A stretch of DNA of 58,181 nt from an uncultured Verrucomicrobiota bacterium (GTDB taxonomy: Bacteria; Verrucomicrobiota; Kiritimatiellia; CAIKKV01; CAIJXV01): NCBI GenBank assembly GCA_964497135.1, contig CAZCDO010000003.1:1-58181 (forward strand), written 5' to 3'. A model generated the notes under the pieces. It ran no database searches and had not been told where the DNA came from. It saw nothing but the letters and a program-made list of their open reading frames with translations. Position numbers and translations under genes: made by a program. Numbering within the stretch: position 1 is the first letter of the stretch; each line of letters opens with the position of its first letter. Positions 2,867 to 57,558 of the stretch are shown piece after piece.

Positions 2867-4159
2867 TCAACAGTGGGCCGTGGCCGCCAGGGCGAGAAAA
2901 TGCGCCAGATCCGCGTCGGTGTGGGCGGCGGAAATGAAACAGACCTCGAATTGTGAGGGTGGCAGGTAAATACCGTGATTTAGCATGTGGTGGAAAAAGC
3001 GGGCATACCGGGCGGTGTCGCACTTTTTGGCGTCGGCCAGATTGCGAAGGGGTGCTGCGCCGAAGAAAAGCGTGAAAAGTCCGCCGAGTTGTGCGCAGTG
3101 GGCCGAGCCGTCACGACAGATCGGCAGGTTTGCAAAGGCTTCCGCCAGTTGCTTCCCCCGGCGTTCCAGTGCCGGATACGGATTCTCATTGATCAACACC
3201 CGGAGGGTAGCCAGCCCGGCGGCCAGCGCCACCGGATTTCCGCTCAAGGTGCCCGCCTGGTAAACCGGCCCCAGCGGGGCGAGCCGGTTCATGATGTCCG
3301 CCCGCCCGCCAAACGCGCCGATGGGCATTCCGCCCCCGATGATTTTTCCCAGGCAGGTCAGGTCCGGCTGAAGACCCCACAGATGGCCCACGGTGGTAGG
3401 TGCCAACCGGAACCCGGTAATGACTTCGTCGAAGATGAGCAACGCGCCGCAAGCTGTGGCCGCTTTCCGCAAGGTCGCCAGAAAACCCGGTTCCGGCGGA
3501 ACCAATCCCATGTTTCCGGCGATGGGCTCCACGATGATGGCGGCCAGTTCCGAACCCTGTGCGGCAACAATCGCCTCCACGGCGGGCACGTCATTGTACG
3601 GGGCCACCAGCACCTCCGCCACCGCCGAAGCGGGCACGCCCGCCGAGCTGGTGATGCCGCCGGTGAGCAGGCCACTGCCGGCGGAAACCAACAGGTAATC
3701 CGCATGGCCGTGGTAACAGCCGTCGAACTTAAGGATTTGGGTGCGTCCCGTGAAGCCGCGTGCCAGACGGATGGCCGACATGACGGCTTCCGTCCCGGAA
3801 TTGACCAGCCGCACTTTTTCCATCGAAGGCACCTGGGTGCGGAGTAATTCCGCGAATTCAACTTCGGCCGGTGTGCAGGCGCCAAAGGTCAGGCCGTCGC
3901 CGGCCGTCCGGCGCACCGCCTCAACCACCGCGGGATGCGCGTGCCCCAAAATCAGAGGACCCCAGGATCCGCAAAAATCCAGCAGGGACCGACCGTCCGC
4001 CGTGGTCAGCCGGGCGCCGTGCCCCGCCGTCATATAGACCGGTGTGCCTCCGACCGAACCAAAAGCGCGAACGGGACTGTTCACGCCGCCGGGAATGACC
4101 TGGCAAGCGCGTTTAAACAGACTATCGGTTTTCGGTTCCAGGTTGATGGATTGACTCAT
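2867..4159 (-). CDS. hemL: Glutamate-1-semialdehyde 2,1-aminomutase
   Basis: PGGVNSPVRAF, GCYHGH, FDEVITGFR, GKIIGGG, YQAGTLSGNP. Confidence 0.97.
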   Translation of the reverse strand: MSQSINLEPKTDSLFKRACQVIPGGVNSPVRAFGSVGGTPVYMTAGHGARLTTADGRSLLDFCGSWGPLILGHAHPAVVEAVRRTAGDGLTFGACTPAEVEFAELLRTQVPSMEKVRLVNSGTEAVMSAIRLARGFTGRTQILKFDGCYHGHADYLLVSAGSGLLTGGITSSAGVPASAVAEVLVAPYNDVPAVEAIVAAQGSELAAIIVEPIAGNMGLVPPEPGFLATLRKAATACGALLIFDEVITGFRLAPTTVGHLWGLQPDLTCLGKIIGGGMPIGAFGGRADIMNRLAPLGPVYQAGTLSGNPVALAAGLATLRVLINENPYPALERRGKQLAEAFANLPICRDGSAHCAQLGGLFTLFFGAAPLRNLADAKKCDTARYARFFHHMLNHGIYLPPSQFEVCFISAAHTDADLAHFLALAATAHC

Positions 4160-4180: not shown

Positions 4181-4284
4181 GGTAGGGCGGTTTCGCCGAA
4201 ACCGCCGCGCTGCATCTCCTCTTTCACCAACACCGGTCGCCTCGGCCCATCGACGCGGCTCAGGGCAGGCGAGGCGGCCCTACC
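4181..4284. repeat. GTAG-type REP inverted doublet; second REP carries a 24-nt insert (4247-4270)
   Basis: ggtagggcggtttcgccgaaaccgccg ... ggtcgcctcggc[ccatcgacgcggctcagggcaggc]gaggcggccctacc. Confidence 0.85.
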
Positions 4285-4301
4285 TTGAGAATGCATTTTC
4301 C

Positions 4302-5294
4302 TTAACCGCCTTCGGCAAAAATCGAATCATACCGGCTCGCCCAGTAGGAAATGATCAGATCGGCACCGGCGCGGCGGATGGCGAAAAGGGATTCGCGCAC
4401 CATGGCGTGCAGATCGCCCATGCCGCGGTCAGCGGCGGCAATCAACATGGAATACTCGCCACTGACATTGTAGGCGGCGAGGGGCAGACGCGTGGTCGGG
4501 CGCAGGCGGGCGATGATATCCAGATAGAAGAGCGCGGGCTTGACCATCAGAATGTCCGCGCCCTCGGCTTCGTCCAATTCCGATTCGCGCAACGCCTGGG
4601 CGGTGTCGCGGTAGGACGCCTGATACCCTTGCCGATCCCCTTTCTGGGGCGCCGACTGTTCGGCTTCGCGGAACGGGCCATACAGGGATGAAGCGAATTT
4701 CGTGGAATAACTCATCAGGAGGGTGTCGTCGGAGCCGGCCTGGGCCAGGGCCCGCCGGAGGGTCAGGACCTGACCATCCATCATGGCGCTTGGGGCCACG
4801 CCATCCGCGCCCGCTTCCGCGTGGGACACCGCGGTTCGGGCGAGGTGGGCGCACGCGGCGTCATTATCCACCTGGCCATCCGGGCGCAGGGGCCCGCAAT
4901 GGCCATGGCTGGTATAGGCGCAGAGGCAGACATCGGTAAAAACCACGAGATGGGGATAGGCTTTTTTTACCGCCTTCACCGCCTGTTGCACGGGCGCCCG
5001 GGGGTTCCAGGCTTCGGATCCGTTGAAGTCTTTGCGCCGGGCCTCACCGAGTCCGAAGATCAGAAGGCCGCCGATTCCGAAGCGCACCGGTTTTTCCAAG
5101 TCGCGCAGAAGTGAATCGATGCTATATCGAAATTGACCGGGCAGGGTTGTGATGGGTTCCTTCACGTTCCGGCCCGATTTTACAAAGACCGGCCAGATGA
5201 ATTTTTCCGGGCCCGGCAGGGGCTCGTCGAATAAGCGGCGGCGTTCCGCCGTCAACCGCAACCGCCGCAACCGGACATCGGGATATGTTTTCAT
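4302..5294 (-). CDS. hemB: Porphobilinogen synthase (ALA dehydratase)
   Basis: RLRRLR, DVCLCAYTSHGHCG, YSTKFASSLYGPFR, MVKP. Confidence 0.97.
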   Translation of the reverse strand: MKTYPDVRLRRLRLTAERRRLFDEPLPGPEKFIWPVFVKSGRNVKEPITTLPGQFRYSIDSLLRDLEKPVRFGIGGLLIFGLGEARRKDFNGSEAWNPRAPVQQAVKAVKKAYPHLVVFTDVCLCAYTSHGHCGPLRPDGQVDNDAACAHLARTAVSHAEAGADGVAPSAMMDGQVLTLRRALAQAGSDDTLLMSYSTKFASSLYGPFREAEQSAPQKGDRQGYQASYRDTAQALRESELDEAEGADILMVKPALFYLDIIARLRPTTRLPLAAYNVSGEYSMLIAAADRGMGDLHAMVRESLFAIRRAGADLIISYWASRYDSIFAEGG

Positions 5295-8100
5295 ATAGGT
5301 CCTCGTTTTTCACTGACACCGGCCGCCTCGGCCCATCGACATCGCTCAGGGCAGGCGATGCAGCCCTACCTTCGGCCTGAGGTAAAGTGGTTTCGCCTGC
5401 CCTGAGCGGAGCCGAAGGGCCGAAACCACCGCTTTCCATTGTCCACACATGCGGCCAATCTTCCGGTGCTGTAACCAATCCAGCCCGCACCGGATTCATC
5501 CGAATATAATGGGCTTTTTCGACGAACGACTCGTCCTTTCGTAACCGGTGGTCAAAGAAGTCATCTTGCCAGACAATTCCCAGGGTACGGGCCGTGAACC
5601 GTTTCCAATCCTGCACAACACGGCGCATACCGGGGTCGCGTGCAAAACTTACCAAGGCATGCAGATGATCCGGCATTACGAGAACCAAATGCGGCCACCA
5701 CTGTTGTAGGTCTGCCCGATGTCGGATGCTATCCCAAAGCCGTTCTGGAATTCCGGTCTGACCCAGTGGAGCCAACCCGCGGGATTCTACACAGATCGTG
5801 ATGAAAAACACAGCCCCGGGTTCAACCCATGTGGGAATATCATGTGGGAGGGTCCTGCGAACCGGTCGGGCGCTTTCGCCATTCTTCCCCAACGGCCGTC
5901 TCGGCGAGACGGCCCTACCTTCGCCCTGAGGTAGGGCGCTTTCGCCGAAAGCGCCGATTTCTTTTTCGACCATCACGGCGGCCAGGGTTTGGATGGCCGA
6001 CTCGACTGACGCTTCCACCGCCACGCGTTCAACTTGAACCCCGTGTTTTTTCAATGCCGCCCAGGTCGGCTGTCCCATTGCCATAACCGTCTTCTCCGCC
6101 AGTGCGTTCGGCGGTTGCACGGCCAGATAGGCTTCAACGGCTGAGGCACTGGCAAAGAAAACCGCATCGAAGGCCGGGATCCGGTCCGGTCGAATCGGTT
6201 CAGTGAAGTATGACACCCCATCGGTCACGCGAAACCCCCTCTGGCCCAGCGCGTCCGCCAGGCCGGGCCCGGCCCGATGTGAGCGCAGGCGCAGGAGGGA
6301 GGCACCCGCGGGGAAGGCTTGTTGGGCCAACTCAAGGACGCCTTCCGCGCCAAAGTTGCGATCGGGTATTGCGTCCGGCGTCACCCCCTGGGCTTTGAAG
6401 GCCTCGGCAGTACCCGGACCCGCGACCAGTATCTTGGGCAGAGCCCGGACATCCAGCCCGGTCTCCGGCAATAGTTGCATCAGCATTCGTACGGAGGAGG
6501 GCGAAGTCACGACCAGTCCGTCGAAAGTCCGGATGGTTTTCAACAGGGGAAGGCAGGTGGGATCGGGGACCAACCGGATTAACGGAAGCGGGAGGGGAAT
6601 GCCGCCGAAATCACGAACGGCATCGACGGATGTTTTTTGAAGGGCATCACTACCGGGCAGGAGCACACGTCGGCCCTGAAGGGCGCTCCATTCCGGGTGA
6701 TAACCACCGGTTGCCACCGACCCCACGAGGATGATGCCCGGGCGGGAATCGGGGGATAGGTGTTGGTTGGTAGGTGGTGGGAGGTGCGCGGCCAATTTTT
6801 TAGCAATGTCATCCAAGGTGCCGCGAATGATGGTTTCATCCACCGATCCGGCATCGAACACAACGGCGACCGGCGTTGTTTCCGGCAGGCCTTCTGCAGC
6901 GAGTTGCGCCCCGATTTCATCCAATACGCCCACGCCCATGAAGAAGGCCAGAGGGAGTTCGGCGCGCGCGTCGGCCCGAACGGAACCGCCCCCCCCGTTT
7001 TGTTGGCGCGGGGTCATGACGGTAAAGCCGCGGGATACTCCCCTCCGAGTCAACAGCAATCCCGTGCCGGTGGTTGCCGCGTTCAGACTACTCACGCCCG
7101 GAATCACCCGGTAAGGGAGATGCAATGTGTCCAGCGTCTCGATTTCCTCAGCCAGCCGTCCAAAAATTCCAGGGTCACCGCCTTTGAGGCGGACCACCCG
7201 TTGCCCGCGCCGGGCGGCATCGGAGAGCAACCGGTTGATTTCAGATTGAGGAACCGTGTGATCGCCACAGCGTTTGCCCACATCCACCCGTTCCGCCTGG
7301 GGCGGCAATTGATCCAGCAGGCTGGCATCCAGCAGACTGTCATAAAAACAAATATCACAACGCGCCAGGGCGTCCCGCGCGCCGAGGGTGCAGGTTTCCG
7401 CCGAGCCACAGCCCGCGCCGGCAAAGATCGCCGCCTTGACCAGTAAACTGCGGATGCGCAGCCAGACGGGATCGCCGTCGCGGAACGTGAGGGCGAGATG
7501 GCCCTGTCCCCGCGGCGGGGGAAGGTCTTCCCGGGAGATTCCTTGGGTGATGCGGGATTCCCATCCGAGTCGCTGGAGTGCCGCCGCGGCCAGGATCAAG
7601 GCCTCATAGGGGCCGTTATCCAGTTGGGCGAGACGTTCGTCGATGGTTCCGCGAATGGAGACGATTCGGCCAGCGCTGAAAAATCGACGGACATAAGCTT
7701 CCCGACGTTGACTACTGATTCCCCAGACGGCATCCGGGCGCAGGGACTCCAGTGTTTCACCGCGCCGCAGAACGATCACATCCTGGGGGTTTGCGGGGTG
7801 GGGAAGCCAGGCCCAGTCCAGTCCCGGGGGAACCGGATCTTCCAGATCCTTGGCGCTATGGATGGCGCAATCGATCACTCTGTCGCGCAGGGCGTCATGC
7901 AAATCCCGGGTGAAAAAATCCGGATCGCAACATCTTAGGTCGGTGGCCTTGTCGCGGTCGCCCGGACTCGAAAAAGGGACGACGTTGAACCGGATGGACG
8001 GCAACAGGGGCTGAAGGGCGGTCACCGCTTCGGCGGCCTGAATCAAAGCCAACCGGCTGTTTCTAGTTCCCACCTTGAATGCTGGTTCGGATGCGTTCAT
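5122..8100 (-). CDS. HemC (no domain 3)-CobA-HemD fusion continuing in frame into a RAYT transposase domain
   Basis: GTRNSRLA, HSAKD, SSQRR, IRGTIDERL, GQG (HemC); VGKRCG, VRLKGGDPGIFGR, IPGVSS (CobA); VTSPSSV, FASASAV (HemD); then MPDHLH and YIRMNPVRAGL (RAYT). No stop until 5122. Confidence 0.9.
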   Translation of the reverse strand: MNASEPAFKVGTRNSRLALIQAAEAVTALQPLLPSIRFNVVPFSSPGDRDKATDLRCCDPDFFTRDLHDALRDRVIDCAIHSAKDLEDPVPPGLDWAWLPHPANPQDVIVLRRGETLESLRPDAVWGISSQRREAYVRRFFSAGRIVSIRGTIDERLAQLDNGPYEALILAAAALQRLGWESRITQGISREDLPPPRGQGHLALTFRDGDPVWLRIRSLLVKAAIFAGAGCGSAETCTLGARDALARCDICFYDSLLDASLLDQLPPQAERVDVGKRCGDHTVPQSEINRLLSDAARRGQRVVRLKGGDPGIFGRLAEEIETLDTLHLPYRVIPGVSSLNAATTGTGLLLTRRGVSRGFTVMTPRQQNGGGGSVRADARAELPLAFFMGVGVLDEIGAQLAAEGLPETTPVAVVFDAGSVDETIIRGTLDDIAKKLAAHLPPPTNQHLSPDSRPGIILVGSVATGGYHPEWSALQGRRVLLPGSDALQKTSVDAVRDFGGIPLPLPLIRLVPDPTCLPLLKTIRTFDGLVVTSPSSVRMLMQLLPETGLDVRALPKILVAGPGTAEAFKAQGVTPDAIPDRNFGAEGVLELAQQAFPAGASLLRLRSHRAGPGLADALGQRGFRVTDGVSYFTEPIRPDRIPAFDAVFFASASAVEAYLAVQPPNALAEKTVMAMGQPTWAALKKHGVQVERVAVEASVESAIQTLAAVMVEKEIGAFGESALPQGEGRAVSPRRPLGKNGESARPVRRTLPHDIPTWVEPGAVFFITICVESRGLAPLGQTGIPERLWDSIRHRADLQQWWPHLVLVMPDHLHALVSFARDPGMRRVVQDWKRFTARTLGIVWQDDFFDHRLRKDESFVEKAHYIRMNPVRAGLVTAPEDWPHVWTMESGGFGPSAPLRAGETTLPQAEGRAASPALSDVDGPRRPVSVKNEDLYENISRCPVAAVAVDGGTPPLIRRAPAGPGKIHLAGLCKIGPEREGTHHNPARSISI
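5321..5956 (-). mobile_element. REPtron: RAYT (Y1 HUH transposase) domain at ~5440-5860 flanked by REP doublets at 5321-5431 and 5893-5956
   Basis: RRTLPH, FFITIC, MPDHLH, WQDDFFDHRLR, YIRMNPVRAGL, DWP; GTAG/CTAC-ended hairpins on both sides with similar spacers ttcggcctga and ttcgccctga. Confidence 0.9.
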
Positions 8101-9562
8101 AGTCTTCCAGATGTTCGTCGATAATGCGGTTGCCCCCGTCGCGGGCCTGTTGAAGGATGACCGTCTGGTGAGGCCCCGTCCGCTTGATGGCATCCAGATC
8201 CGCTACGCGCACGGTTGACTCTCCGAGCGCAAAATCCGGAGCGACATTTCGCGGGACCCCAAAATCCAACACGATGACCGCATGTCCTCCGGCCGTAACG
8301 GCCCGAAGGTGTTCCGCCGACAGGAGGGGGCCTTCACCCCGGATTGCGCAAACAATGGCATCCTGATTTTGAAGCGCCTCCGGCAGGGCGATCCAGGGAA
8401 AAACGGGAATGTGATCTGTCGGTCCGGAAAATACCGGAACCCGGCTATGGTAACAACAGGAGACCCGGGCCCCTTCCGCCACGAGCCGTTCCACAAGGCC
8501 TTTTCCGATCGTACCTGATCCAATGACCAGGATGCGCCGACCCGGGAGGCCGCCCCATTCGCCGGCGAGATAATCCCGGCAAAGATCCTCGACATCGGCA
8601 CTCCCCAGAATGGGTTGGGTGGCTTGGCGGATAACTTTGCCGATATGCAAGGCGGTACCGACCCAATCCTGCAAAACGCCGGCCGACCATCCGGCCCGGG
8701 CACTCACGTCCAGGGCCGATTTGACCTGGGCGCAAATATGGGTTTCGCCCGGGTTTTGGGAGAGAAGGCCGGCGACCACCTGGGCCAAATGGCGGAACGC
8801 ATCGCGGCCGGTCTGAACATAGATCCGCGCTTCCGGTCGGTCGAACCCGAGGATGCGCCGGACGAGTTGCACGAGGGGCGGGGTTACGGTTGCCAGTGCG
8901 ACGAGTTCGACCCGATTACAGGTACTTAACAGCATGAACTCATGGATCCCCAGCAACTGGCGCAACATCTCCGCGGTTTCATTCAGGCGGTCGCCGGAGA
9001 GGTGCAGGGATTCCCGTTGCGCGAGAGGGGTGAAGCGATGATCGGTGCCGATGACCAGGAGATCCGCCTGACCCAGCGCATCCGCGTGACGGGCGAGACT
9101 CTCCTTGATCAATCTCGAGCGACGGCAGGCGGCGCCACCGGTGGACACGCTGACGGTCAGGTCGCCGCGTTTGAAGCTCGCCGGGGAGATAAAATCGCCG
9201 TTCTCCCAGCCGGTGTCGGGGCAGGCGCATAAAAGGCCCCGCGCTCGACAGCACTCCAGAATACTCCGGTTCAGGGCGGGATTGTCCGTAGCGGTGATGA
9301 CCAGAAAGAGGCCGCGCTCCAAATCCGCTGGAACATAATCGCGCTGGAGAATGCGGACCCCTGACACCGAGCGCAGGGTCTGCACGGAATCGGCGAGTTT
9401 GGGTGCGACGAGGATGACCTCCGCTCCGGCGGTGGCCAGGGCTTCGGCTTTGCGCCCGGCCACGGGGCCGCCGCCCACGACGAGGCACCGCCGGCCTGCG
9501 ACGAGTAAGGCCACCGGCAGGATCGGTTTCGAACGACGGGGGGGATGACCCTTATCCGGCAT
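8063..9562 (-). CDS. hemA: Precorrin-2 dehydrogenase (SirC/CysG N-terminal) fused to glutamyl-tRNA reductase lacking the dimerization domain
   Basis: VVGGGPVAGRK, ATDN, VSTGG; then STCNRVE, GETHICAQVK, GSGTIG, DFGVPRNV. Confidence 0.88.
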   Translation of the reverse strand: MPDKGHPPRRSKPILPVALLVAGRRCLVVGGGPVAGRKAEALATAGAEVILVAPKLADSVQTLRSVSGVRILQRDYVPADLERGLFLVITATDNPALNRSILECCRARGLLCACPDTGWENGDFISPASFKRGDLTVSVSTGGAACRRSRLIKESLARHADALGQADLLVIGTDHRFTPLAQRESLHLSGDRLNETAEMLRQLLGIHEFMLLSTCNRVELVALATVTPPLVQLVRRILGFDRPEARIYVQTGRDAFRHLAQVVAGLLSQNPGETHICAQVKSALDVSARAGWSAGVLQDWVGTALHIGKVIRQATQPILGSADVEDLCRDYLAGEWGGLPGRRILVIGSGTIGKGLVERLVAEGARVSCCYHSRVPVFSGPTDHIPVFPWIALPEALQNQDAIVCAIRGEGPLLSAEHLRAVTAGGHAVIVLDFGVPRNVAPDFALGESTVRVADLDAIKRTGPHQTVILQQARDGGNRIIDEHLEDYERIRTSIQGGN

Positions 9563-9635
9563 GGGATGCCTTGGTTTTTTGGGGCGATGCGCCAGCCATG
9601 GGGGAATCTCCTTTTCCGCAGTTTGTTGGACCTGT

Positions 9636-10577
9636 TTAATCGAAGAGCGAAGTCGATAGATAGCGTTCGCCGGAATCGGGCAGGATGACCACGATGGTTT
9701 TGTCCTTGAATTCCGGTTCCCGGGACAAGCGCGCGGCGACCGCAACGGCAGCGCCACACGAGATGCCCGAAAGCAGGCCTTCCTCGCGAGCCAGTCTGCG
9801 GGCATACTCGAACGCTTCCTCGTTGGATACGGTTTCCAAACGATCCACCAGCGACAGATCGAGCACCTCCGGAACGAATCCGGCCCCGATACCCTGGATC
9901 ATGTGCGGACCGGGTTTCAGCGCCAGGCCGGCCCGGTATTGGGAGAGGATGGGGCTCTGCGCCGGTTCCACCCCCACCGTCAAGAGGGCTTTACCTTTCT
10001 GTTTTTTGATAAAGCGCGAGATCCCGGTGATCGTGCCGCCCGTTCCAATTCCGGCCACGAGCACATCAATTTCACCCTCCGTAGCGTCCCAGATTTCCGG
10101 GCCGGTAGTTCGTTCATGGATGGCCGGATTGGCTGGATTCTTGAATTGCTGGGGCATGAAGATATGGGCCGGATCCTGTGCCGCCAACTCTTCTGCTTTC
10201 GCGATGGCGCCCGCCATGCCTTGGACGGCATCGGTCAGGACGAGTTTGGCGCCAAAGGCCTTCAAAATCTGACGGCGTTCGACGCTCATGGTCTCGGGCA
10301 TAATCAGCGTTACCGGGTAACCCCGCGCCGCGCCGACAAAGGCCAGCGCGATGCCGGTATTGCCGCTGGTGGGTTCAACGATCTCCATGCCCGGCTTGAG
10401 CACGCCCCGTTGCTCGGCGTCCCAGACCATGGCGGCGCCGATGCGGCACTTGACTGAATAGGCGGGATTTCGTCCTTCCACTTTGGCCAGAACCCGCGCC
10501 TGGGTTCCGACCACTCGCCGTAATTGCACCAGCGGTGTGTTGCCGATCGACAACGAATTATCTTCATAGTATGGCAT
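9636..10577 (-). CDS. cysK: Cysteine synthase A
   Basis: [38 protein letters not shown]. Confidence 0.96.
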
Positions 10578-10589
10578 GATATTACTCCG

Positions 10590-10616
10590 CGGCGCTTTCG
10601 GCGAAAGCGCCCTACC
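10590..10616. repeat. GTAG-type REP, close match to the RAYT-flanking copy at 5930-5956 (opposite orientation)
   Basis: cggcgctttcggcgaaagcgccctacc. Confidence 0.85.
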
Positions 10617-54236: not shown

Positions 54237-54295
54237 GGTAGGGCGCGCTCTCCGAGCAAGCCGCCGCCCGGCTCCCTCGGAGAGGTCGCCCCACC
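54237..54295. repeat. GTAG-type REP doublet
   Basis: ggtagggcgcgctctccgagcaagccg...cggctccctcggagaggtcgccccacc; homologous to 57476-57558. Confidence 0.75.
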
Positions 54296-57475: not shown

Positions 57476-57558
57476 GGTAGGGCGAGATCTCCGAGCGAGC
57501 CGTTCCAGACGCGTCGGCGTGGAGCAGAAGACGGCTCCGTCGGAGACGTCGCCCTACC
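57476..57558. repeat. GTAG-type REP doublet
   Basis: ggtagggcgagatctccgagcgagccg...cggctccgtcggagacgtcgccctacc. Confidence 0.8.

Follow-up and report, generated by a model that had tools for sequence, protein, structure and literature searches.

A REP-associated tyrosine transposase in frame with the tetrapyrrole gene hemC-cobA-hemD in an uncultured Verrucomicrobiota bacterium

REP-associated tyrosine transposases (RAYTs) are generally seen as transposases that have become domesticated, occur in single copy and sustain populations of repetitive extragenic palindromes (REPs). REPs that lie near stop codons can affect translation, and translation of the IS200 transposase is limited by RNA structure; how the expression of RAYTs themselves is set is, to our knowledge, largely unknown. 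Here, a stretch of 58,181 nucleotides from an uncultured Verrucomicrobiota bacterium of the Kiritimatiellia (contig CAZCDO010000003.1 of assembly GCA_964497135.1, positions 1 to 58,181; the whole stretch is called the window below) illustrates one arrangement in which an intact RAYT, together with the REPs that bracket it, continues the reading frame of the gene for the trifunctional tetrapyrrole enzyme HemC-CobA-HemD. The locus is a verified natural case of an intact RAYT that appears to have no start of its own and to be translated from an essential biosynthetic gene, with conserved parallels in the phylum, and as such it offers a testable model for the translational hitch-hiking of a mobile-element enzyme.

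The unit formed by such a transposase and its REPs, the “REPtron,” has been defined, and group 2/3 REPtrons are among those that have been studied (PMC8266576). The window RAYT resembles the Escherichia coli enzyme TnpA-REP (structure 4ER8) and other REPtrons in its HUH motif and catalytic tyrosine, in its fold, in its single copy and in the dispersed REPs with GTAG heads that are likely its cognates. It differs from them in lacking a start and a stop of its own, in a frame that is continuous on both sides, and in the translation of its REPs.

Several described systems share part of this arrangement. REPs with GTAG heads are known at the ends of and inside open reading frames (ORFs), where they contribute REP-coded residues and where GTAG sometimes supplies a TAG stop; tyrosine transposase genes, too, may have flanking REPs that run over their 5' or 3' end, and the Verrucomicrobia are rich in GTAG REPs (Di Nocera et al. 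2013, PMC3733652). The likeness to the present locus lies in REPs at coding ends, but where the passages of that paper on ORF ends concern the REP alone, here a whole RAYT stands in the frame. The Rickettsia palindromic elements, which figure in the background of the same paper (PMC3733652) as in-frame insertions in protein genes, are alike in that a repeat is tolerated as an extra peptide in a housekeeping protein; they carry no enzyme, whereas here the repeat peptide links a complete nuclease domain. Finally, “unexpectedly long” TnpA-Y1 proteins encountered in bulk surveys have been treated as “gene fusions or annotation errors” and put aside (Quentin et al. 2018, PMC6006769). These are objects of the same kind, discarded in the relevant passage without analysis; the locus described here, by contrast, has verified junctions and a defined empty site, and fusions related to it prove to be conserved. 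Beyond that remark, the literature searched gave no treatment of RAYTs that housekeeping genes carry in frame, and nothing relevant was found in PMC5581495; the supplements of PMC3733652 and PMC6006769 may list such cases. For annotation, the implication is that RAYT proteins that seem “too long” should not be discarded automatically as errors.

The fused frame and its junctions

A single open frame on the minus strand, 5122-8193, joins HemC-CobA-HemD, a REP doublet and a full-length RAYT, an observation that is confirmed. In the list of ORFs this frame has 1023 amino acids (aa) counted from its first ATG, while public gene calling (P0001) places the start at the ATG at 8100, for a product of 992 aa. 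The hemC-cobA-hemD coding part of P0001 (5959-8100, minus strand) scores above the cutoffs of TIGR01469 and TIGR00212 and contains the Pfam domains Porphobil_deam (PF01379, residues 40-242), TP_methylase (PF00590, 256-463) and HEM4 (PF02602, 524-735). The three domains in this order, with colinear matches among relatives, identify the trifunctional enzyme, and 27 of 31 genomes of relatives have some match to the query sequence. Past the residues VMVEKEI no stop is found, and the frame proceeds through the REP doublet (21 residues) into the RAYT and then into a second REP doublet. In all, the tetrapyrrole frame is extended by 278 codons that comprise REP-A, REP-B, the RAYT and a 110-nt REPIN hairpin, which the frame traverses after the RAYT. 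As originally predicted, the frame stops 173 nt inside hemB: its stop codon lies at 5122-5124 and the ATG of hemB at 5292-5294, so that the tail of the fused frame (5122-5294, minus strand) covers the beginning of hemB in another frame. The hemB gene itself (porphobilinogen synthase; 4302-5294, minus strand; Pfam ALAD, 409 bits) has its own GAGGA Shine-Dalgarno sequence and ATG directly 3' of the REPIN hairpin. The RAYT, measured as a stand-alone gene with its own start and stop, does not qualify, the frame being continuous from hemC to hemB.

The catalytic core of the RAYT (TnpA-REP; residues 789-915; 5449-5829, minus strand) is well preserved. It belongs to the family described by NCBIfam model NF047646 (REP-associated tyrosine transposase), of which it covers positions 5-145 of 146 with 80.9 bits for the whole protein and 85.4 bits for a 221-aa segment, against a cutoff of 80. 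The HUH motif, H-L-H, is encoded at 5659-5667, the motif WQDDFFDH is present, and the codon of the catalytic tyrosine lies at 5506-5508 within HYIRMNP. The HLH and HYIRMNP motifs align to HMH and YIYINP of 4ER8 (E 4.3e-7), to which the WQ..F..H motif aligns as well. The HUH motif and the tyrosine are invariant in an alignment of 14 sequences, and the window copy keeps all 31 invariant columns. In a structure model made from 14 sequences, the predicted local distance difference test (pLDDT) is above 90 in the core and 40-52 in the REP-coded flanks. The top Foldseek match of the model is 4er8_A (E 8.1e-8, target template modeling score 0.67), followed by the TnpA proteins of IS608 and ISDra2. 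The original prediction used the name Y1_Tnp for this domain; the Pfam family of that name (PF01797) itself stays below its gathering threshold (16.4 bits vs 23), and a precomputed PF01797 match is also missing from most close homologues. The encoded RAYT is probably active on its cognate REPs; indirect evidence that it cleaves and rejoins single-stranded REP DNA comes from the REP counts of the two species and the one spacer occupied here and empty in the sister species, described below.

REPs stand on both sides of the core. On the 5' side, REP-A (5929-5956, plus strand; exact pattern at 5930-5955) consists of a GTAG head and a palindrome that on the minus strand supplies the codons for GAFGESALP in the hemD frame. 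REP-B (5894-5919, minus strand), recognized by pattern and RNA fold, combines a GTAG head with a 10-bp GC palindrome and is translated as GRAVSPRRP. It is followed by A', a half copy of REP-A (5864-5880, plus strand; family D2, 94% identity) translated as GESARP, which in the alignment matches the second REP-coded leader segment of stand-alone relatives. On the 3' side, the second doublet (5315-5436, minus strand; inverted pair I1) is predicted to form one long REPIN-like hairpin within the RAYT frame; its fold of -86.9 kcal/mol (z -8.0) was equaled by none of 200 shuffles, and Rfam returned for it just two sub-threshold matches resembling microRNAs. The inverted repeats that flank the RAYT thus occupy 5893-5956 and 5315-5436. 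A 21-nt head-to-head REP junction (CTACC, 8 nt, GGTAGG) occurs in two copies in the window, compared with none in 100 shuffles: copy 1 at 5913-5933 (minus strand) and copy 2 at 5364-5384 within the 3' hairpin, the two belonging to a direct repeat (family D1) of 44 nt with 82% identity and a spacing of 549. In the whole assembly the only copies of this junction are the two that bracket the RAYT, in direct orientation. The original description of the locus as a whole REPtron in frame with HemC-CobA-HemD, with intact RAYT motifs and REP flanks, is accordingly supported by the ORF, by NF047646 and by contigs that cross the junctions; the GTAG palindromes on either side of the RAYT are also dispersed in the genome.

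Two further observations concern the repeats themselves. The bracketing direct repeats (5364-5384 and 5913-5933) are 549 nt apart, a multiple of 3, and a deletion between them would drop the RAYT and keep the frame; no deletion joint of this kind was found in the four runs examined. An antisense REP-A followed by a T-rich run (5935-5965, plus strand) is terminator-like, but with one such site against a shuffle mean of 1.6 it may be due to chance.

A frame of this kind could in principle be produced by assembly, as the genome is a metagenome-assembled genome of 342 contigs, 89.8% complete, and REPs are repeated sequences from which a chimeric join might be made. The window was compared with Logan contigs from sequencing runs of three studies. 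In run X1, possibly the source of the assembly, one contig spans 4900-6400; in run X6, from another study, a contig spans 4900-5987; and in run X8, from a third study, contigs span 5716-6400 and 4900-5368, in every case with 0 differences. At these junctions the contigs of the three runs show neither a stop nor an indel nor an empty-site joint, and the stop or frameshift at about 5960 that would have spoken against the original prediction is not seen. The fused allele is found in 8 listed runs, dated 2020 to 2025, that contain at least half of the sampled words. Among the runs with only part of the stretch, X9 yielded fragments only, none of which crosses the hemD junction, and no empty-allele joint. 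The right-hand junction, moreover, lies in sequence that is not repeated elsewhere. Because the contigs of three studies carry the junctions with 0 differences and 8 runs contain half or more of the sampled words, an assembly artefact is unlikely, indeed extremely improbable as an account of the locus, and the fusion is real in wild lake populations.

Translation of the RAYT

How the RAYT is translated depends on what lies between it and the HemD domain. A scan of the sequence bears out the earlier observation that no in-frame ATG is found between the HemD domain and the RAYT core and that a TTG (5890-5892, minus strand) is the only canonical in-frame start candidate. This TTG is 14 codons ahead of the LPH motif, one base after the 10-bp GC stem of REP-B, and is paired in the predicted fold. 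No Shine-Dalgarno core is seen in the 20 nt upstream of it, and the region 5100-6300 has 0 promoter-like sites, compared with a shuffle mean of 0.3.

Comparison with 10 of the closest stand-alone homologues (P0054-P0062 and P0064; 62-72% identity, 150-252 aa) provides a view of the usual organization of these genes. In 9 of the 10 the called protein has M as its first residue, and in 7 of the 10 this M is located upstream of a REP-coded leader that runs from GR(A/D)xSPxxP through G(A/G)(F/L)GE..(A)LP to (V/A)RK.LPH. As the C-terminal tails of these relatives are likewise REP-coded, translated REPs appear to be normal in this RAYT lineage. With P0054-P0060 in particular the window RAYT shares a core of 64-72% identity and the same leader, GRxxSPxxP and GA(F/L)GE(S/R)ALP, and tail; these proteins differ in having their own ATG upstream of the REPs and a stop soon after the 3' REP. 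In the window copy, the position of the relatives' ATG is occupied by the hemD tail.

In view of this organization, the RAYT very probably depends on translation of the hem operon. As hemD has no stop, all ribosomes that start at hemC would cross the RAYT, and the passenger form would be the main RAYT product. The original proposal that the nuclease is a passenger of a housekeeping enzyme is supported indirectly, by the relatives' ATG upstream of the REP leader and by the conservation of start-less fusions to MnmG and CinA described below.

The same stretch of sequence can also be taken as two genes that share a frame, with a small RAYT made from the TTG at 5892 and the long chain a rare or rapidly degraded by-product without a role. 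Some of the evidence for this alternative weighs against dependence on the hem operon. An ATG is found 8-15 codons before LPH in about 37 of 46 more distant homologue loci, judged by eye, and the TTG at -14 falls in this interval, where it is a possible weak start for a separate RAYT. By the same by-eye count, about 5 of the remaining loci have GTG or TTG only (such minority starts occur in L028, L052, L056 and L061) and 3-4 have no start. Transposases are usually made at very low levels, and weak starts would suit them. What makes separate translation unlikely is that the TTG has no Shine-Dalgarno core and lies one base past a 10-bp GC stem, that the starts of the closest relatives lie ahead of REP-B and not where the TTG is, and that with no stop in hemD the fusion product is unavoidable unless the RNA is cut.

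The empty site and the origin of the fusion

The one other species of the genus (the sister species, G001) shows what the locus looks like when the element is missing. Its HemC-CobA-HemD is 81% identical to that of the window, and no RAYT of this clade was found in it at E up to 1e-20. The G001 hemD ends in a REP-coded tail, with a stop TGA that overlaps the ATG of hemB, and part of its frame consists of the REP-A residues GAFGESALP plus 7 more. Since G001 hemD reads through REP-A before its TGA, REP-A is, by this comparison, already in the hemD coding tail within the genus; VMVEKEI, given in the original prediction as the end of HemD, lacks a stop as stated but is not the end point. At the hemD-hemB site the window has about 627 nt and G001 has 12 nt. 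An empty allele of the kind that the original prediction had proposed to look for is found in G001, where the stop is the TGA overlapping the hemB ATG.

Other relatives are in line with the sister species, as none of their 14 loci has a RAYT at the hemD site or HemD joined to a nuclease. The ATGA overlap of hemD and hemB is found in 7 of the 14; of the others, 2 have gaps of 9 and 17 nt, 3 have larger gaps without a RAYT, and 2 are without hemB. In the larger gaps (L017, L018 and L023), whose frames were judged by eye, another mobile insert is not evident; L018 has two reverse-strand frames that resemble tetrapyrrole-pathway genes, a recognition likewise made only by eye. Among database matches, the architecture HemC-CobA-HemD::RAYT is that of the window protein only.

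These comparisons suggest how the fusion came about. The inserted DNA lies upstream of the ancestral hemD stop, the TGA of the ATGA overlap, and because the extra DNA shifts the phase of this TGA, the fused frame misses it. The fusion also depends on a local accident, in that the insertion fell ahead of the ancestral stop and left that stop in another frame. Stop trinucleotides are scarce in this genome (2.37% of trinucleotides), so that 22 stop-free codons have a P of about 0.6, and 2 of the 3 frames of the 5' doublet are open. For an element within a coding tail, roughly 1 join in 3 would be in frame, which is not improbable in itself, and no special mechanism is needed for the origin of the fusion.

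The reading preferred here, to which we give about an even chance, takes the fusion as a genuine read-through in which hem-operon translation carries the RAYT along as a tolerated hitch-hiker. A REPtron lies in the short slot between the REP-bearing hemD tail and hemB, upstream of the ancestral stop; in this lineage it is normal for a RAYT gene to stay open across the REPs that flank it, and the tetrapyrrole frame therefore runs on. Ribosomes from hemC would then be unable to end after HemD and would produce the 992-aa chain, in which the RAYT follows a disordered REP-coded linker. The ATG found upstream of REP-B in the nearest stand-alone relatives would have been lost from this copy, leaving only a TTG that lacks a Shine-Dalgarno sequence and abuts a GC hairpin, and most RAYT from this locus would probably be the passenger form, in an amount that the hem operon determines. 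The arrangement would be a tolerated state of hitch-hiking that arises from REP biology, rather than a catalytic partnership with the tetrapyrrole enzymes. As a side effect, hemD and hemB would no longer be coupled in translation through the ATGA overlap, an example of how REPs in coding tails can remodel operons.

Related fusions and REP families

Whether start-less RAYTs can be maintained as parts of other proteins is best seen from similar fusions elsewhere in the phylum. The searches for these were limited to long proteins, so that the fusions are ascertained by length and the lists are incomplete (the second search missed the MnmG clusters found by the first). The first search gave seven other fused clusters, besides the window protein and P0008, an empty allele of the sister type. 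Its fusions, CinA::RAYT and five MnmG::RAYT clusters, have REP-coded repeat linkers and no Met before the core. The second search gave 47 clusters of 266-2000 aa, compared with 806 of stand-alone length, and added 33 RAYT::cytochrome c clusters, a second CinA::RAYT and a ParA-like::RAYT. Family scans confirmed the fusion partners, including the ArsC-like and ParA-like ones. Other housekeeping-gene fusions with REP-encoded linkers, which the original prediction had suggested might exist, are thus found with MnmG and CinA and, via four REP units, with an ArsC-like protein.

Two of these partners allow the persistence of the fused state to be examined. DNA linked to MnmG is available at three loci, of which L072 is fused in frame, L071 is frame-shifted and L073 is broken by an internal stop. 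In L071 (1702-3900 and 3863-4486) a one-base shift within the last REP unit puts the RAYT out of frame, and upstream of it there is neither ATG nor GTG nor TTG; its RAYT core shares 91% identity with P0005. For the pair L071 and L072, the ratio of nonsynonymous to synonymous substitution rates (dN/dS) is 0.118 for the RAYT core (dS 0.95, 140 codons) and 0.68 for the linker (40 codons). The two CinA::RAYT proteins are colinear, with 62% identity over 605 columns that include the junction and the RAYT. Because the dN/dS of the MnmG-linked core is low and the CinA pair is colinear, these comparisons suggest that start-less, host-fused RAYTs can persist under purifying selection, and hitch-hiking at hemD is therefore plausible.

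A broader and more tentative possibility is that some verrucomicrobial RAYTs form a clade that has dispensed with a translation start and is made solely as the C-terminal passenger of whichever housekeeping gene lies upstream (HemD in the window; MnmG, CinA, an ArsC-like and a ParA-like protein in other genomes), via a disordered REP-coded linker, with selection keeping the frame. If so, the REPtron would be a stop-free cassette, and the dose of the nuclease would be set by translation of the host gene.

The diversity of the partners bears on whether the fusion at hemD is adaptive, that is, selected for tying REP processing to a siroheme, heme and sulfur operon or for cooperation between nuclease and enzyme. 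In favor of such a link are the operon order, cysK, CysG-N::HemA, hemC-cobA-hemD::RAYT, hemB and hemL, and the REPs in three of its spacers. Against it, neither the sister species nor any of the 14 hemD loci of relatives has the fusion, and the partners of related fusions (MnmG, CinA, an ArsC-like phosphatase, a ParA-like ATPase and cytochrome c) are functionally unrelated. We know of no chemistry shared by the RAYT nuclease and the tetrapyrrole enzymes. The evidence lends no support to an adaptive link with siroheme or sulfur metabolism, and adaptive coupling as a whole is very improbable. Of the interpretation first placed on this locus, then, the in-frame REPtron and the idea of a passenger find support, while the tie between REP mobilization and a siroheme/sulfur operon does not. 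Nor does the idea that the element habitually spreads by frame-preserving insertion into genes, given a single-copy RAYT, its absence from the sister species and the 14 loci, and 806 short clusters to 47 long ones.

The distribution of REPs in the two species of the genus gives some indication of recent activity. The exact REP pattern (a GTAG head, a variable stem and the loop TCGCCGA) has 19 copies on 15 contigs of the genome, compared with 0 for reversed-pattern controls, and its stems vary with compensatory changes. The sister species has 3 exact-pattern REPs, all on the hem contig. With 2 mismatches allowed, a second family with the loop TCTCCGA appears, and the count is 81 sites here and 21 in the sister. 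One REPIN-bearing spacer of this genome is empty in the sister and another is occupied in both species; REPs have probably moved since the two species split. The window RAYT is single-copy, with seven paralogous RAYT matches in the genome at 24-46% identity. As none of the seven is on a contig that carries the first REP family, the window RAYT is likely the cognate enzyme of that family.

This evidence of mobility also enters into the question of whether the RAYT is dead or dying cargo, a recent arrival whose frame is open for lack of time and which is neutral ballast on HemD. The element is absent from the sister species, no close orthologue of it was found (the best DNA-level relative is 57% identical), a 64% identical fragment in G009 contains a stop, other fused copies decay, as in L073, and the 107 open codons after the RAYT core have a chance of 0.08-0.21. 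On the other hand, the 151 stop-free codons from the TTG through the core have a P of about 0.03 from composition alone, all invariant residues are retained, identical copies of REP-A and REP-B over 15 contigs suggest recent mobilization, and the allele is present at half or more of the sampled words in the 8 runs of 2020 to 2025. A decaying passenger is, on balance, quite unlikely.

To the points already raised against a RAYT that rides on hem-operon translation, several others are to be added. Any estimate of selection on this copy has as its basis population contigs without variation and nearest available DNA that is at most 57% identical. No RNA run is listed among the runs that contain the stretch. 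At 2 mismatches the sister species also has 21 REP-like sites to the 81 here, mostly of the second family, and the higher REP count here could predate the fusion. Of the MnmG-linked copies, ascertained by length like the other fusions, one is out of frame (L071) and one broken (L073). Finally, an even sample of the phylum gave 98 RAYT matches in 64 of 401 genomes, of which only 5 of the 98 are in frames longer than 300 aa, at least two of them spurious upstream. These five frames are the window, an ArsC-like::REP x4::RAYT (L068) and three whose upstream parts are unreal or unresolved; among the long frames, those of G373 (692 aa) and G218 (424 aa) were rejected as fusions because their upstream parts are arginine-rich junk frames.

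Other features of the fused proteins and their repeats vary. At L068 (2706-4100), an ArsC-like low-molecular-weight phosphatase is joined to the RAYT via four in-frame 105-nt REP units; REP arrays lie at 3202-3650 and 4576-5135, the same array appearing again downstream of the RAYT. The notion that REP arrays are held at periods divisible by 3, as under a coding constraint, fitted the first three arrays but was rejected, as this is the case for 6 of 10 arrays in other genomes and for 3 of 7 when three fusion-ascertained arrays are left out. The RAYT::cytochrome c proteins, 33 of the 47 long matches (P0009-P0052) with a cytochrome c Pfam domain, include one cluster of 136 members and one labeled Candidatus Udaeobacter. 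Of five sequences inspected (P0012, P0020, P0024, P0026 and P0032), the three intact ones, P0012, P0020 and P0024, carry the RAYT at the N-terminus; it starts at an ATG of its own but has no stop, and REP-coded GAPGGRALP leads into an apparent lipoprotein signal peptide of a c-type cytochrome.

In the genome of the window, the TCTCCGA family forms 84-nt tandem arrays on both sides of a paralogous RAYT (46% identity) on another contig (C41, 16641-17836; L002), and copies occur near the end of the window at 54237-54295 and 57476-57558. Within the hem operon, further REPs of the same families, recognized by pattern and comparison, occupy the hemB-hemL spacer (4181-4286) and are common to the sister species; REPs are also found upstream of cysK (10591-10616), so that three junctions of the operon carry them. 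The hemA gene (8066-9805, minus strand) is itself a fusion, with the N-terminal domains of siroheme synthase (NAD_binding_7 and Sirohm_synth_M) ahead of glutamyl-tRNA reductase, and the last 38 nt at its 3' end are shared with the beginning of hemC.

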